Shown: piece by piece, positions 3,836-25,879 of the stretch | Layout: each line of letters opens with the position of its first letter | Numbering within the stretch: position 1 is the first letter of the stretch | Assembly (NCBI GenBank): GCA_934167465.1 | Contig: CAKPKR010000001.1 | Span: 287,030-351,029 of the forward strand | Source of the DNA: an uncultured Bacilli bacterium | GTDB lineage: Bacteria > Bacillota_I > Bacilli_A > RF39 > UBA660 | Direction of reading: 5' to 3' | DNA: 64,000 nt | Program-made: the position numbers and the translations under genes | Notes under the pieces: generated by a model | Seen by the model: the letters and a program-made list of their open reading frames with translations, nothing else | Database searches by the model: none | What the model was told of the DNA's origin: nothing

Positions 3836-4864
3836 TTAATTTCCTAAAAAAATAATTCTTGCAAATCCATCTCCAATGTTTGAATATTCTATTATTGATT
3901 TATTACTAACATTTGTACTATTTATTGTTTTAGTATTTTCTTCAGCAGATTCTTTACAATTATAGCAATATATTTTTTTATTTTTTAATAAGTTATTTCC
4001 AATATAACTTGAACCTCCACCAGCAGAATAAGGGGTACAACCACCTCCATAAAGTCCACCTCCACCTCCTACTCCAGCACAAGTAGCACCTTGACCAAAG
4101 GAACCAATTGAATGATAAATTGGATTTGTATTTCCTCTACTATCATAAAAATTTCCTCCAGATGTTTGTGATGCACCAATTCCATATAATGTTACTGTAC
4201 CTTCCTTATAAGAATCGCCATTTACACCTTGAATACCTCCACCATTACCACCAGAACAAGCCATAATTGCTGCATTAGATCCACCTCCGCCTCCACCTGA
4301 TGCAACAATATAAATTGATGATAATTTTTTGCTTAATGTGGAAAGTAAGCCGGATTCTGATGCTATATGAGTTGCTCCTCCACCTGATGCAGTTAGTACA
4401 TGGCCATCATTGTCAATTTTAGCATCTCCACCACCATTATATCCACCTTTAAAAGCTTTATGTTCACCATTTCCTGAACCAGAACCTCCAACATTTATAT
4501 ATAATTTACTACCTTTTTGTAAAGTAATTTCTCCTGTTGCATATGCTCCATATCCACCTGTTTTAGATGAAGTAGACGCACCGCCTTGAGCACCCCATAC
4601 ATCTAATCTGTATTTACCATTATATGGAACTATAAATATTTGTTCAGTACCTGTGTATAAAAAATCATAAACTACTGAAAATTGATTATTTTTTTTATTA
4701 TATAATTCATTTAAAGCATCATTTACGCTCATACTACTTCCGTCACTGGCATTATATACTACATCACTTGCTTTATATATTGTTGCGGCATAGACTCCTA
4801 GCCCAGTAAATATTATTCCACATATTACTATTAAAAATATTCTACTTTTTATTATTTTTTTCAT
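3836..4864 (-). CDS. secreted glycine-rich protein (Gly_rich-like domain). The N-terminal 55 aa are shared with the paralog at 5183-5734.
   Basis: N-terminal signal anchor MKKIIKSRIFLIVICGIIFTGLGVYA. Body includes VWGAQGGAS...YINVGGSGSGNG...IYIVASGGGGGGS...GGGGGLYGGGC. The ORF-track start at 4891 adds 9 aa. I prefer the ATG at 4864 because of the RBS AGGTGA, identity with the paralog start, and a consensus promoter upstream. Confidence 0.8.
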   Translation of the reverse strand: MKKIIKSRIFLIVICGIIFTGLGVYAATIYKASDVVYNASDGSSMSVNDALNELYNKKNNQFSVVYDFLYTGTEQIFIVPYNGKYRLDVWGAQGGASTSSKTGGYGAYATGEITLQKGSKLYINVGGSGSGNGEHKAFKGGYNGGGDAKIDNDGHVLTASGGGATHIASESGLLSTLSKKLSSIYIVASGGGGGGSNAAIMACSGGNGGGIQGVNGDSYKEGTVTLYGIGASQTSGGNFYDSRGNTNPIYHSIGSFGQGATCAGVGGGGGLYGGGCTPYSAGGGSSYIGNNLLKNKKIYCYNCKESAEENTKTINSTNVSNKSIIEYSNIGDGFARIIFLGN

Positions 4865-4880
4865 TTGATCACCTATTTCA

Positions 4881-4928
4881 ATTATATACATTCAAATAAA
4901 TGTATGTCAAGTACATTTGTTTGAATGT
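4881..4928 (-). promoter_or_regulatory. consensus sigma-A promoter: -35 TTGACA at 4905-4910, 18-nt spacer, -10 TATAAT at 4881-4886. The spacer is the palindrome TACATTCAAATAAATGTA. A second copy of the motif (TACATTTGTTTGAATGT) lies at 4912-4928.
   Basis: Read on the minus strand as TTGACAtacatttatttgaatgtaTATAATtgaaatAGGTGAtcaaATG. Confidence 0.6.
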
Positions 4929-9768: not shown

Positions 9769-10035
9769 CTAAAAAATTTCCATTGCTTTAATAATTATAT
9801 AGATAAAACACACTTTTGTCAATAAAAATAAGTTAATAAGATACTTTTCCACAATAATATTTTTTGATTTTATTCTTTTAGTTTTTGCTTTTACATTATT
9901 TATTTTATTTTCTAATTCTTTTAATTGAGTTTCTTTTGATTCTAATTCATTATAATTTTCTTCTAATTTCTTCATTTTAAAGTGTTGTTTACTTAATTTA
10001 ATTTTTATTTCTGCTTCATTTAACATAAATAACAT
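9769..10035 (-). CDS. hypothetical small protein (coiled-coil N-terminus, hydrophobic C-terminus), possibly spurious
   Basis: 88-aa ORF inside the oriC-proximal AT-rich spacer. No recognisable family. Confidence 0.2.
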   Translation of the reverse strand: MLFMLNEAEIKIKLSKQHFKMKKLEENYNELESKETQLKELENKINNVKAKTKRIKSKNIIVEKYLINLFLLTKVCFIYIIIKAMEIF

Positions 10036-10077
10036 TCTTTCTAATTATATATATGTTTAAAAAAAAATAATTAACAA

Positions 10078-10312
10078 ACTTTTCCACATAAAAAAACTTT
10101 ATTTTTTTATTTAAAAATTCGTTTTTCCACTTATTTGTGTATAAATAATACACTTGTATGTGGAATAATTATACACATATGTGAATAAAAAAATTAAGTT
10201 TTCCACAATTTTGTTTAAAACTATATTTATTTATTATTTTATAAGAAATTATTTTGTGGAAAAAAATGTGAATTATGTGTGAATTAGTTGTGGACTAAAA
10301 AAAATCCACAAA
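10078..10312. promoter_or_regulatory. oriC DnaA-box cluster upstream of dnaA, with at least 7 boxes matching TTATCCACA with 1-2 mismatches
   Basis: TTTTCCACA 10080-10088, TTTTCCACT 10133-10141, TGTGGAATA 10159-10167, TTTTCCACA 10199-10207, TGTGGAAAA 10255-10263, TGTGGACTA 10289-10297, AAATCCACA 10302-10310. Confidence 0.7.
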
Positions 10313-13107: not shown

Positions 13108-13566
13108 GTGGAAAACTATGAAATAAATAATTCAACATTAGCAGTTATTGCTTTAAATGAGAAACAATCCAAAATAATTGAATTAGATGAAATTTATATT
13201 GTGGAAAAATCTGTATTTGAAATAATTGATCATAGTTGTAAATTTTTTGGAAGTTCATATTTAGGAAGACATGAGGGAACAAAAATGATAACTGGAATAA
13301 AATATAAAACACCTATATTAATTGAAGAAAGTCATAATATTATATTTTTTCCTACATGTTCTTCTAAAATGAATAATTGTATGTGGATATCTTTAAATAA
13401 TATTAAAAATTATTCAAAATATAAAAGAATTTCTAAAATTATATTTAAAAATGATTATGAATTAATTCTTAATATTTCATATGGTTCATTAGAAAATCAA
13501 ATATTAAGATCAACTTTATTAGATAGTACACTTAGAAATCATAAAAAAAATATAATGAATAAGTAA
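13108..13566 (+). CDS. comK: ComK-family competence transcription factor homolog
   Basis: GTG start with RBS GGAGGG. Aligns by eye to B. subtilis ComK motifs: NSTLAVIAL / KIIELDEIYIV / EIIDHSCKFFGSSYLGRHEGT / KTPILIEESHNIIFFPTCSS / NCMWISLNNIK / ISYGSLENQILR. Confidence 0.65.
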   Translation: MENYEINNSTLAVIALNEKQSKIIELDEIYIVEKSVFEIIDHSCKFFGSSYLGRHEGTKMITGIKYKTPILIEESHNIIFFPTCSSKMNNCMWISLNNIKNYSKYKRISKIIFKNDYELILNISYGSLENQILRSTLLDSTLRNHKKNIMNK

Positions 13567-16730: not shown

Positions 16731-19172
16731 ATGGATAGAATAATTGAAAAAAATATTGTACAAGAAGTAAGAGATTCTTTCTTAGAATATTCAATGAGTG
16801 TAATTGTATCTCGTGCTATTCCAGATTTAAGAGATGGTTTAAAACCTGTTCATCGTAGAATTTTATATTCAATGTATGAATCAGGATATACTGCAGATAA
16901 ACCACATCGTAAAAGTGCTAGAATAGTCGGGGATGTTATGGGAAAATATCATCCACATGGTGATTCATCAATTTATGAAGCAATGGTTCGTATGGCTCAA
17001 CCATTTAGTTTTAGACATATGTTGGTAGATGGACACGGTAACTTTGGTAATATGGATGGAGATGGAGCAGCAGCAATGCGTTATACCGAAGCTCGTCTTT
17101 CAAAATTATCTTTAGAAATGGTAAGAGATATTAATAAAGATACTGTTGATTTTAAAAATAATTTTGATGATACTGAAAAAGAACCTGTTATATTACCTTC
17201 TAGATTTCCAAATATATTAGTAAATGGATCAATGGGAATAGCAGTTGGAATGGCAACCAATATTCCTCCACATAATTTAGGAGAAGTTATAGATGGATGT
17301 GTTGCTTATATCGATAATCCTGAAATTGATACATTAGGTTTAATGCAACATATTAAAGGTCCAGATTTTCCAACTGGTGGTATAATCCTTGGAAATAGTG
17401 GAATAAGAAAAGCTTATGAAACTGGAAAAGGAAGCATTACTATTCGTGGTAAAGTTGAAATAGAAGAAAACAATGGTAAAAGTAGAATTATTGTTACAGA
17501 ACTTCCATATCAAGTCAATAAAAAAGAATTCCAAGAAAGAATTGGACAATTAGTCAGAGATAAAATATTAGATGGAATTAGTGATTTACACGAAGAATCA
17601 AACTTAGAAAACCCAGTTCGTGTTGTAATTTATTTGAAAAAAGAAGCCAATGCTAATGTTGTATTAAATAATTTATATAAACATACACAATTACAAACAA
17701 CTTATGGCATTAATTTATTAATGATAGATCAACAAACACCTAGAATATTATCTTTAAAAGAAGTTATTTCTAAATATATTGATTATCAAAAAGAAATTAT
17801 TATTAGAAGAAGTAAATTTGATTTAAATAAATGTGAAGCAAGAGTTCATATATTAGAAGGTTTAAAAATAGCTTTAGATAATATAGATGAAATAATTAGA
17901 ATAATTAAAGCATCAAAAACAGATGATATTGCTAAAGAACAATTAATGTCTAAATTTCCTTTGGATGTAGTTCAATGTGAAGCAATCTTAGAAATGAAGT
18001 TAAGAAGATTAACTGGTTTAGAAAAAGATAAAATAGAAAATGAGTTAAAAGATTTATTAGAGCGTATTGAAGAATTAAAATCTATTTTAGCTTCAGAACA
18101 AAAAGTATTAGATATAATTAAGTCTGAATTAATTGAAATTAAAGATAAATATAGTGATGAAAGAAGAACAAATATAGATATGACAGCAATAGAATATATT
18201 GAAGATGAGTCATTAATTCCAGTAGAGGACATAGTTATAACATTAACTAATAAAGGATATATAAAAAGAGTAACTAGTGAAACTTATAAAACTCAAAATA
18301 GAGGTGGAGTTGGAATTAAAGGTATGGCTACAAATGAAGAGGATTTTGTAGAACAATTAATTTCAATGACAACACACGATTACTTATTATTTTTTACAGA
18401 TAAGGGAAAAGTGTACCGAATTAAAGGATATGAAGTACCTGAATTTAGTAGACAATCTAAAGGATTACCTATTATTAATTTATTACCAATTGAAAAAGAT
18501 GAACAAGTTACAGTTATGTTAAAGGTTGAAAATCAAGACCAAAATAAATATATTGTATTTTGTACACAAAGTGGTTTAATTAAAAGAACTGAATTAACTG
18601 AATTTGATAACATTAGAAATAATGGTAAAATAGCAATTACTCTAAAAGAAAATGATAAATTGATATCTGCAAGAAAAACAGATGGTACAAAAGAAATAAT
18701 GATTGGTACTTCAAATGGTCGAATGATTAGATTTGAAGAAAATGAAATTAGAGTAATGGGTAGAACTGCATCTGGAGTAAAAGGAATAGATGTCGGTGAT
18801 GGAATATGTGTTGGATGTGAAGTAGCTGATAAAGAACAACAAGTATTAGTTGTTACTGAAAAAGGATATGGTAAACGTACTAGTGTTGAAGAGTACAGAC
18901 AAACACATAGAGGTAGCAAAGGTGTTAAGGCATTAAATGTTACAGAAAAAAATGGTAATATAGTTTCATTTAAAATAATTGATAGTACAGAAGATTTAAT
19001 GATTATTACAAATAGTGGAATAATTATTAGATTACCAATTGAACAAATATCAACAACAGGTAGAGTAGCGCAAGGTGTAAAATTAATTAATCTTAAAGAT
19101 GAACAAAAAGTAAGTACAGTAGCGCTTATTCAAAAAGATGAAACAAATGAAATAGAAGAACAACAAAATTAA
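16731..19172 (+). CDS. gyrA: DNA gyrase subunit A
   Basis: Active-site region [10 protein letters not shown] and C-terminal beta-pinwheel repeats. Confidence 0.98.
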
Positions 19173-19186
19173 TTGTTGTTCTTTTT
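19158..19186 (+). terminator. gyrA terminator GAACAACAA-loop-TTGTTGTTC followed by TTTTT
   Basis: Read directly. The stop codon lies in the loop. Confidence 0.6.
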
Positions 19187-19204
19187 ATGTTTCACGTGAA
19201 ACAT
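19187..19204. repeat. 18-bp perfect palindrome ATGTTTCACGTGAAACAT (copy 1 of 3)
   Basis: Read directly. Confidence 0.7.
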
Positions 19205-19344
19205 TGAATTACTATCTAATTTTTTTAATTCAAAAAATTTATTAGACTTATATATTTTGAATTTTATAATATATTTATTATCTATATTTTTGATTTATGT
19301 AAAAATATTAATTTTATATTTTATTATATAATTTTTATAATATA

Positions 19345-19362
19345 ATGTTCCACGTGGAACAT
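19345..19362. repeat. 18-bp perfect palindrome ATGTTCCACGTGGAACAT (variant copy 2 of 3)
   Basis: Read directly. Confidence 0.7.
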
Positions 19363-19389
19363 TAAAATTAAATTATAAAACAACAATCA

Positions 19390-19407
19390 ATGTTTCACGT
19401 GAAACAT
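19390..19407. repeat. 18-bp perfect palindrome ATGTTTCACGTGAAACAT (copy 3 of 3)
   Basis: Read directly. Confidence 0.7.
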
Positions 19408-19451
19408 TGATAAAAAACTTGCTAAAAAAAATAAAATATTATATATTATTA

Positions 19452-19530
19452 ATGACACAACATTTATATTCGAACCAGGTCAGATGAGGAATCAAGCAGC
19501 CTTAAGATTCACTAAATGTGTGTGTCTTTT
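19452..19530 (+). ncRNA. ffs: small signal-recognition-particle RNA (4.5S/ffs-like hairpin). Boundaries are approximate.
   Basis: Domain IV core CCAGGUCAG...GGAAUCAAGCAGCC matches the conserved 4.5S motif. The flanks GACACAACAUUUA / UAAAUGUGUGUGUC form the long helix. Promoter TTGCTA-17-TATATT upstream and a U7 run downstream. Confidence 0.55.
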
Positions 19531-19549
19531 TTTATAATTGGTGATGAAA

Positions 19550-25039: not shown

Positions 25040-25879
25040 ATGTCACAAAAAAGTTATAATGGAACACCAACTGTATATGTAATACCAACTCCAATAGGAA
25101 ATATGGAAGATATAACAGTTAGAGCATTAAATATTTTAAAAGAAGTAGATGTGATATTTTGTGAAGATACAAGAGTAACATCACAGCTATTAACTTATTT
25201 TGAAATAAAAAAAAGATTAATATCTAGTCATAAATTCAATGAAAAAGAAAATCATAATAAGTTGCTTGAATATTTAAATGATGGTAAAAATGTTGGAATT
25301 GTTACAGATAGAGGTACTCCAATAATAAGTGATCCAGGATATGAATTAACGAAATGTGCAATTGAAAATAACTTTAATGTTGTATCATTACCAGGTGCGA
25401 CTGCTTTTGTTCCAGCTCTTACTTCTTCGGGAATATCTCCTCAGCCATTTTTATTTTATGGATTTTTAATTAATAAAGAAGGAAAAAGAAAAAAAGAATT
25501 AGAAGCTTTAAAAAATAATAAAGAAACAATGATATTTTATGAATCTCCACATAGAATAATAGAAACATTAGATAATATGTTAGAGGTATTTGGTAATCGA
25601 AATATTAGTATTTCCCGGGAAATATCTAAAAAATTTGAAGAAATTTATAGAGGAACAATTGAAGAAGTAAAAGAACAAATGCTTGAAATTAAAGGTGAAC
25701 TTGTGATTGTAGTTGCGGGAAATACTTCTAAAAACACATTTGACAATCTAACAATAATAGAACATGTAAACCTATATATTAAAGAAGGTATGAGTAGTAA
25801 AGATGCAATAAAACAAGTTGCTCAAGATAGAGGTTTAAATAAAAATGAGGTATATAAAGAATATCATAGAGGTGAATAA
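25040..25879 (+). CDS. rsmI: 16S rRNA (cytidine1402-2'-O)-methyltransferase RsmI
   Basis: Tetrapyrrole-methylase fold with YVIPTPIGNMEDIT. Confidence 0.9.
   Translation: MSQKSYNGTPTVYVIPTPIGNMEDITVRALNILKEVDVIFCEDTRVTSQLLTYFEIKKRLISSHKFNEKENHNKLLEYLNDGKNVGIVTDRGTPIISDPGYELTKCAIENNFNVVSLPGATAFVPALTSSGISPQPFLFYGFLINKEGKRKKELEALKNNKETMIFYESPHRIIETLDNMLEVFGNRNISISREISKKFEEIYRGTIEEVKEQMLEIKGELVIVVAGNTSKNTFDNLTIIEHVNLYIKEGMSSKDAIKQVAQDRGLNKNEVYKEYHRGE

Follow-up and report, generated by a model that had tools for sequence, protein, structure and literature searches.

Putative chromosomal parS sites clustered downstream of gyrA near the replication origin of an uncultured gut Bacilli bacterium

The DNA analysed is a stretch of 64 kb (hereafter the window) that spans the replication origin; its contig derives from human-gut metagenomes. 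GC skew is negative up to about 10 kb and positive beyond, and DnaA-box-like sites are clustered upstream of dnaA, at 9845-10263. The genes are arranged in the order rsmG-mnmG-...-mnmE-jag-yidC-rnpA on one side and dnaA-dnaN-(comK-like)-recF-gyrB-gyrA on the other, followed by the sites described here and then by ffs-tadA-dnaX-ybaB-recR. The DnaA-box-like sites are mostly of the TTTTCCACA variant, not TTATCCACA, and a perfect consensus box is absent from the cluster. The comK-like gene (13108-13566, between dnaN and recF) encodes a protein of the ComK family with a Pfam E-value of 3e-43, and the same arrangement was found in two loci of relatives, L085 and L086. At 3836-4891 a protein of 351 aa with an ALK/LTK glycine-rich domain is encoded (PF12810, E-value 4e-34). 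Together with a small HTH gene it is inserted between mnmE and mnmG, which is unusual for this conserved origin-flanking operon.

Between gyrA and the gene of the SRP RNA, the following features were found:

16731-19172, gyrA, the upstream open reading frame
19154-19185, terminator-like hairpin, which covers the gyrA stop codon
19187-19204, no strand assigned, palindrome parS-1, ATGTTTCACGTGAAACAT, with its 16-bp core at 19188-19203; exact match to the consensus TGTTNCACGTGAAACA
19205-19344, A/T-rich spacer of 140 bp between parS-1 and parS-2, poorly conserved
19345-19362, no strand assigned, palindrome parS-2, ATGTTCCACGTGGAACAT, with its 16-bp core at 19346-19361; T-to-C change in each half-site
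19390-19407, no strand assigned, palindrome parS-3, ATGTTTCACGTGAAACAT, with its 16-bp core at 19391-19406; 11 bp 5' of the -35 hexamer of ffs
19419-19447, promoter-like site TTGCTA-17-TATATT, with the -35 beginning 11 bp past copy 3
19444-19540, small bacterial SRP RNA (ffs), the downstream RNA

The spacings between the copies are 158 and 45 bp, and the whole cluster occupies 220 bp of non-coding DNA. An earlier note on this DNA had reported three 18-bp palindromes located between gyrA and the SRP RNA gene, and the coordinates and sequences that it gave were exact, as was the identity of both neighbours. Its description of copy 1 as abutting the gyrA terminator was borne out, since the copy begins 2 bp past the hairpin, and so was that of a nearly pure A/T segment of 140 bp bracketed by the copies, which lies between the first and the second. 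Copy 3 had been placed upstream of the -35 element of the SRP RNA promoter, which is correct, but the distance of about 15 bp had to be revised to 11 bp. In addition, parS-3 is enclosed in a perfect palindrome of 26 bp, ATCAATGTTTCACGTGAAACATTGAT, at 19386-19411. The extra arms of this longer palindrome are A/T-rich, and their palindromy is not kept in relatives.

The 18-mer was searched in the window with up to 3 mismatches allowed, and just these three matches were obtained, with 0.07 expected. Three matches were reached in none of 100 dinucleotide-preserving shuffles of the window, so the view that the palindromes are not random was upheld. The search with the 16-bp core and up to 2 mismatches likewise returned these three sites alone. 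At this threshold, further core sites were found neither in the 64 kb nor in an extra 10 kb of the source scaffold (L001).

The 16-bp cores, TGTTTCACGTGAAACA in two copies and TGTTCCACGTGGAACA in the other, show no mismatches to TGTTNCACGTGNAACA. Both forms fit the consensus of the canonical chromosomal parS, the target of Spo0J/ParB, namely TGTTNCACGTGAAACA, as given for Bacillus subtilis and Corynebacterium (PMC7022226). In the same review, TGTTTCACGTGAAACA is given as the parS of Hyphomonas and the TGTTCCACGTGGAAC form is given for Myxococcus and Pseudomonas, while the parS-2 form appears in the table as TGTTCCACGTGGAACG of Myxococcus and also for Pseudomonas (PMC7022226). The parS-2 copy differs from copies 1 and 3 at the degenerate N of the consensus, position 5/12. 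The related NBS, the site of the ParB paralogue Noc, differs from parS at half-site positions 1 and 6, which are A and C in NBS but G and A in parS (PMC7383237), and all three sites in the window carry the parS bases G and A at these positions. The identity of sequence with parS is a direct observation. On this basis, the three palindromes are very probably chromosomal parS, that is, putative Spo0J/ParB nucleation sites marking the origin. The earlier note had seen no match to the Firmicute regulator boxes that it considered. Since the core is the canonical parS consensus, the reading as an unknown regulator box does not apply, nor does that as a terminator or insulator; the sites are an ordinary, well-understood element in a new instance from an uncharacterised organism.

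The position at the origin, which is also directly observed, agrees with parS. The palindromes begin 8.8 kb from the dnaA start codon, about 9 kb right of oriC, and relatives with chromosome-scale or >1-Mb contigs have sizes of 1.2-1.5 Mb. The sites are therefore well inside the expected parS origin domain.

Conservation was studied in relatives retrieved by a scan of reference genomes with GyrA, which provided 80 loci from MAGs of uncultured gut Bacilli/Tenericutes with GyrA 72-99% identical. A parS site was called in these loci at no more than 1 mismatch. It was found directly downstream of gyrA in 79 of the 80 loci, in 1-16 copies, and in the single locus without it the sequence ends 22 bp past gyrA. 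The spacers from gyrA to ffs/tadA hold 307 parS sites (about 41 kb of spacer in total, counting the 65 loci for which both ends of the spacer could be placed), with only 13 elsewhere in 1.435 Mb. The perfect matches among these 13 are all within about 1.8 kb downstream of gyrA, and no parS was found left of the origin in 986 kb of the relatives' loci. The restriction to a single locus and the conservation across the lineage are thus observed directly. The earlier note had named two outcomes that would speak against its interest in the palindromes: absence of the motif from the orthologous gyrA-tadA interval of close relatives, and scattering of the motif as a REP-like dispersed repeat. Neither was seen; the sites are kept in that interval in 79/80 relatives, and a single spacer is the place of the motif both in the window and in 2.4 Mb of related loci.

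An alignment of close relatives showed the 18-mers and the hexamers of the ffs promoter as invariant islands in a spacer that is poorly conserved and variable in length. The flanking A and T of the 18-mer are kept in 98% and 99%, respectively, of 279 perfect sites, and the 18-bp extension of the core is therefore real. The parS-2 variant is found in 34 copies in relatives. In a MAG of the same species (L005, GyrA 99%), copies 2 and 3 have lost their symmetry and read TGTTCCACGTGAAACA and TGTTTCACGTGGAACA, and across relatives 45 of the 279 perfect sites are asymmetric. This asymmetry is expected if either half-site can hold T or C, and it is contrary to a selected stem.

These data bear on the proposal that the palindromes act as RNA or DNA hairpins that terminate transcription or insulate gyrA from ffs. 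In favour of this proposal, each palindrome is perfect, copy 1 is next to the terminator-like hairpin of gyrA, and in a terminator scan the minus strand of copy 3 was reported as terminator-like. However, there is no minus-strand gene here, and a T-tract is absent from copies 2 and 3 on the transcribed (+) strand, where only the gyrA hairpin at 19154-19185 qualifies as an intrinsic terminator; the terminator role suggested in the earlier note thus found no support. Moreover, it is the sequence and not the pairing that is conserved, with variation at the consensus N alone, and the asymmetric N in L005 and in the 45 sites breaks the pairing. Altogether, the chance that the sites act as hairpins is negligible. 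The symmetric variant had been read as a sign of selection on either a dimeric protein site or a hairpin. The first part stands, the sites being probably the target of a dimeric DNA-binding protein, whereas the argument for a hairpin fails because position 5/12 is a degenerate N and asymmetric copies occur.

Copy number varies widely in the lineage. A tandem parS array with 13.5 copies of a 40-bp unit (95% matches) is present at L026:12483-13023, and tandem arrays were also found in L039, L074, L045, L047, L063, L082, L052 and L075. Outside L026 the arrays comprise 4-7 copies with periods of 37-105 bp (5-7 copies at periods of about 37-95 bp in L039, L074, L045, L047 and L063), and L052 has 16 parS sites across 3.2 kb. 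The tandem arrays in relatives could be a real expansion of the centromere or assembly artefacts.

Between the last parS site and ffs the distance is also variable, 24-205 bp in relatives, which suggests that no strict requirement links ParB bound there to SRP RNA transcription. Copy 3 ends only 11 bp 5' of the -35 hexamer of ffs, and in several relatives the last site is 24-38 bp from the projected ffs start. Such proximity would suit operators of a dimeric transcription factor that acts on the SRP RNA promoter or on gyrA read-through. For an operator, a fixed number and a fixed position are expected, whereas 1-16 copies, including 40-bp tandem arrays, and the range of 24-205 bp were observed, and in sequence the palindromes are parS. 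In view of this range, a constant spacing from the last site to the ffs promoter, as an operator would have, was rejected, and the operator reading is considered highly improbable.

The A/T-rich segment between copies 1 and 2 was analysed for functions of its own. It contains 5 promoter-like matches, with 5.2 expected from shuffles, so there is no excess, and no Rfam family matches it. Its sequence and length vary among close relatives. A hidden role as promoter, RNA or ORF was rejected in view of the lack of promoter excess, the lack of an Rfam family and the poor conservation. The segment is poorly conserved filler inside the centromere cluster.

The surroundings of the origin were inspected for ParB-family genes. 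The only one found near this origin is on the same scaffold, some 3 kb to the left of where the window begins, at L001:12708-14396 and three genes beyond rsmG. It encodes a protein of 562 aa with ParB_N and HTH_ParB domains. Compared with solved structures, it is closer to Noc (E-value 1e-57) than to Spo0J (1e-45), and among NCBIfam models it scores highest with nucleoid_noc, reaching 286 bits, below the cutoff of 315 bits, with 170 bits for the generic ParB domain. In the work of Jalal et al., the residues that set specificity are R173/T179/A184/G201 for parS and Q173/K179/K184/R201 for NBS, and Q173 together with R201 switches specificity given a permissive lysine at 179 or 184 (PMC7383237). 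The protein has Q-K-N-R at these positions, which is Noc-type, and Q173 and R201 are present in 91 of the 91 orthologues that could be scored. In the deep mutational scan of the same authors, R173 is invariable in the parS-specific variants, and position 201 is T or S in most variants of dual specificity; the Q-K-N-R variant was not found in the text of the article (PMC7383237).

Some other features of the Noc-like protein were observed. It is without the N-terminal extension of about 25 residues seen in the Noc structures of Bacillus and Geobacillus. A low-complexity linker of about 300 aa is followed by a small conserved C-terminal domain (...IDFxxxYQIxxKIxK). The orthologues range from about 290 to 560 aa, and the length of the linker varies widely. 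The N-terminal extension of Noc carries a membrane-targeting helix.

NBS are also present in the window. A perfect one, ATTTCCCGGGAAAT, was found at 25610-25623, within a gene for an rsmI-like methyltransferase (25040-25879). In the lineage there are 68 perfect NBS in 2.4 Mb, where base composition would give about 0.002 per Mb, and in relatives they recur at syntenic offsets from the end of gyrA, approximately +5.4 to +7.1 kb and -11.2 kb. Because of its Noc-type residues and these perfect, conserved NBS, the Noc-like paralogue is predicted to read NBS and not parS.

The cognate ParB was searched for by tblastn, with the N-terminal module of the Noc-like protein, a fragment of Thermus Spo0J and the Spo0J of B. 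subtilis (approximate sequence) as queries. No parS-type or second ParB-family gene was obtained in the 74 kb of this genome covered by the window and L001, a result that held at E ≤ 10 for the Noc-like module and the Thermus fragment. No ParB gene lies within 10 kb of gyrA in any of the 80 relatives. In a further 83 loci, a second ParB-family gene adjoining the noc-like gene was absent from 82, the exception being L121. There, a noc-like gene of the Q-K-N-R type is followed about 6 kb downstream by soj and then by a Spo0J of 296 aa that reads GKSRSHITNILGLLRL...TMGHAR, that is, R-I-R-G of the parS type. This Spo0J of the lineage has the GERR box and the N-terminal LGxGL motif in its sequence. 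Both are expected motifs of ParB.

With the L121 Spo0J as a query, at least 120 homologues with 69-100% identity were retrieved from MAGs labelled Bacilli or Mollicutes bacterium; among the matches listed, all 118 that could be scored carry R173, and position 201 is G, A or S in each of them. The relatives at the family level (L121, L168 and L169) encode soj and a Spo0J of about 293 aa with parS-type residues, and the MnmG of the relatives that bear soj-spo0J is 68-70% identical to that of the window. In L168 and L169 the order is soj-spo0J-mscS-DUF951, which in L168 runs on to ...-ychF-rpsF-ssb-rpsR, an arrangement known from Bacillus. In L121 and L169 both paralogues are on one contig and their signatures are cleanly separate. 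Two sequences, P0221 and P0213, were rejected as the Spo0J of the species in the window, as they come from other samples and belong to family-level relatives only; the true orthologue is probably to be sought beyond the matches listed.

In L169 (9226-20882), soj-spo0J-mscS-DUF951-(transporter) runs directly into rpmH-rnpA-yidC-jag-HD-mnmE-mnmG-rsmG-noc-like on the same strand. With respect to the origin-flanking operon, soj-spo0J is therefore placed otherwise than in L121 and L168, and the pair has evidently moved within the lineage.

With these results, the reader of the sites can be considered. It was examined whether the parS-like sites are read by the Noc-like paralogue or another factor, with soj-spo0J lost or relocated and the Noc-like protein acting as the centromere binder. 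This would be in line with the lack of any other ParB-family gene among those found near the origin, both here and in the nearest relatives, with the missing N-terminal extension and with a nucleoid_noc score under the cutoff. [quoted passage not shown] In addition, the conserved perfect NBS provide the protein with targets of its own, and L121 and L169 hold both paralogues with separate signatures. This reading is thus quite improbable. A related one, that in this subclade soj-spo0J is gone from the ancestral position left of the origin, and maybe lost, and that the reader of parS is non-classical, is scarcely more probable. One candidate for the reader would then be the Noc-like paralogue, with no membrane-targeting N-terminus, a linker of about 300 aa and a novel small C-terminal domain. 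In a weaker version of this reading, the group of uncultured gut Bacilli as a whole would have a single-locus centromere that expands and contracts like a plasmid array (1-16 copies, tandem units of about 37-105 bp). Instead, we infer that parS is read by a canonical ParB of the R173/G201 type encoded outside the 74 kb examined, mainly because parS is strictly conserved in the closest relatives.

For the parS sites read by a canonical ParB, the mechanism, including binding, spreading and downstream functions, would be as follows from established ParABS biology. Each ParB dimer would recognise one palindrome by its helix-turn-helix, bind CTP, close into a clamp and slide to the flanking DNA. 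In this way, the 220-bp cluster may seed a partition complex that covers several kilobases around gyrA-ffs-dnaX. After replication, the new origin would be marked by this complex for segregation by means of Soj/ParA, and the complex could, by analogy with other bacteria, also load the SMC condensin.

The sites provide the annotation of a chromosomal centromere in an uncultured, very AT-rich lineage of gut Bacilli, and the position of the origin region is confirmed. As a practical consequence, when a palindrome with a CACGTG core is met close to an origin, parS should be considered first and a new regulator box only afterwards. The strict single-locus parS cluster with variable copy number and the co-conservation of NBS with a Noc-like paralogue that is devoid of the N-terminal extension may be of interest for studies of ParB/Noc specificity and of the evolution of centromeres. 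The side observations reported here leave the identity of the three parS sites unchanged.

Compared with known systems, the closest is parS/Spo0J of B. subtilis, which shares the identical 16-bp palindrome, the location in the origin domain and the Firmicute/Bacilli setting. B. subtilis has 10 parS sites, 8 of them in the origin domain (PMC7022226), whereas in the window and in the lineage all the sites seen are packed into one intergenic spacer downstream of gyrA. Origin-proximal clusters of parS are known from Mycobacterium smegmatis (3 sites), Pseudomonas aeruginosa (4 nearest oriC), Caulobacter (5), Corynebacterium glutamicum (10) and Myxococcus (22). As in those clusters, a group of near-perfect parS copies next to oriC would serve as one centromere; unlike them, the three sites of the window lie within 220 bp of non-coding DNA, and the cognate ParB was not found in 74 kb. 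The NBS/Noc system is similar in its related 16-bp palindrome for a ParB paralogue, and both types of site are present in the window. Finally, centromeres of the sopC type, as in the F plasmid, are tandem arrays of the ParB site, and the regular parS arrays of some relatives resemble them, for instance the 13.5 x 40-bp unit of L026. Unlike sopC, the three copies in the window are not in tandem, and the site that is repeated is a chromosomal parS and not a plasmid-specific sequence.
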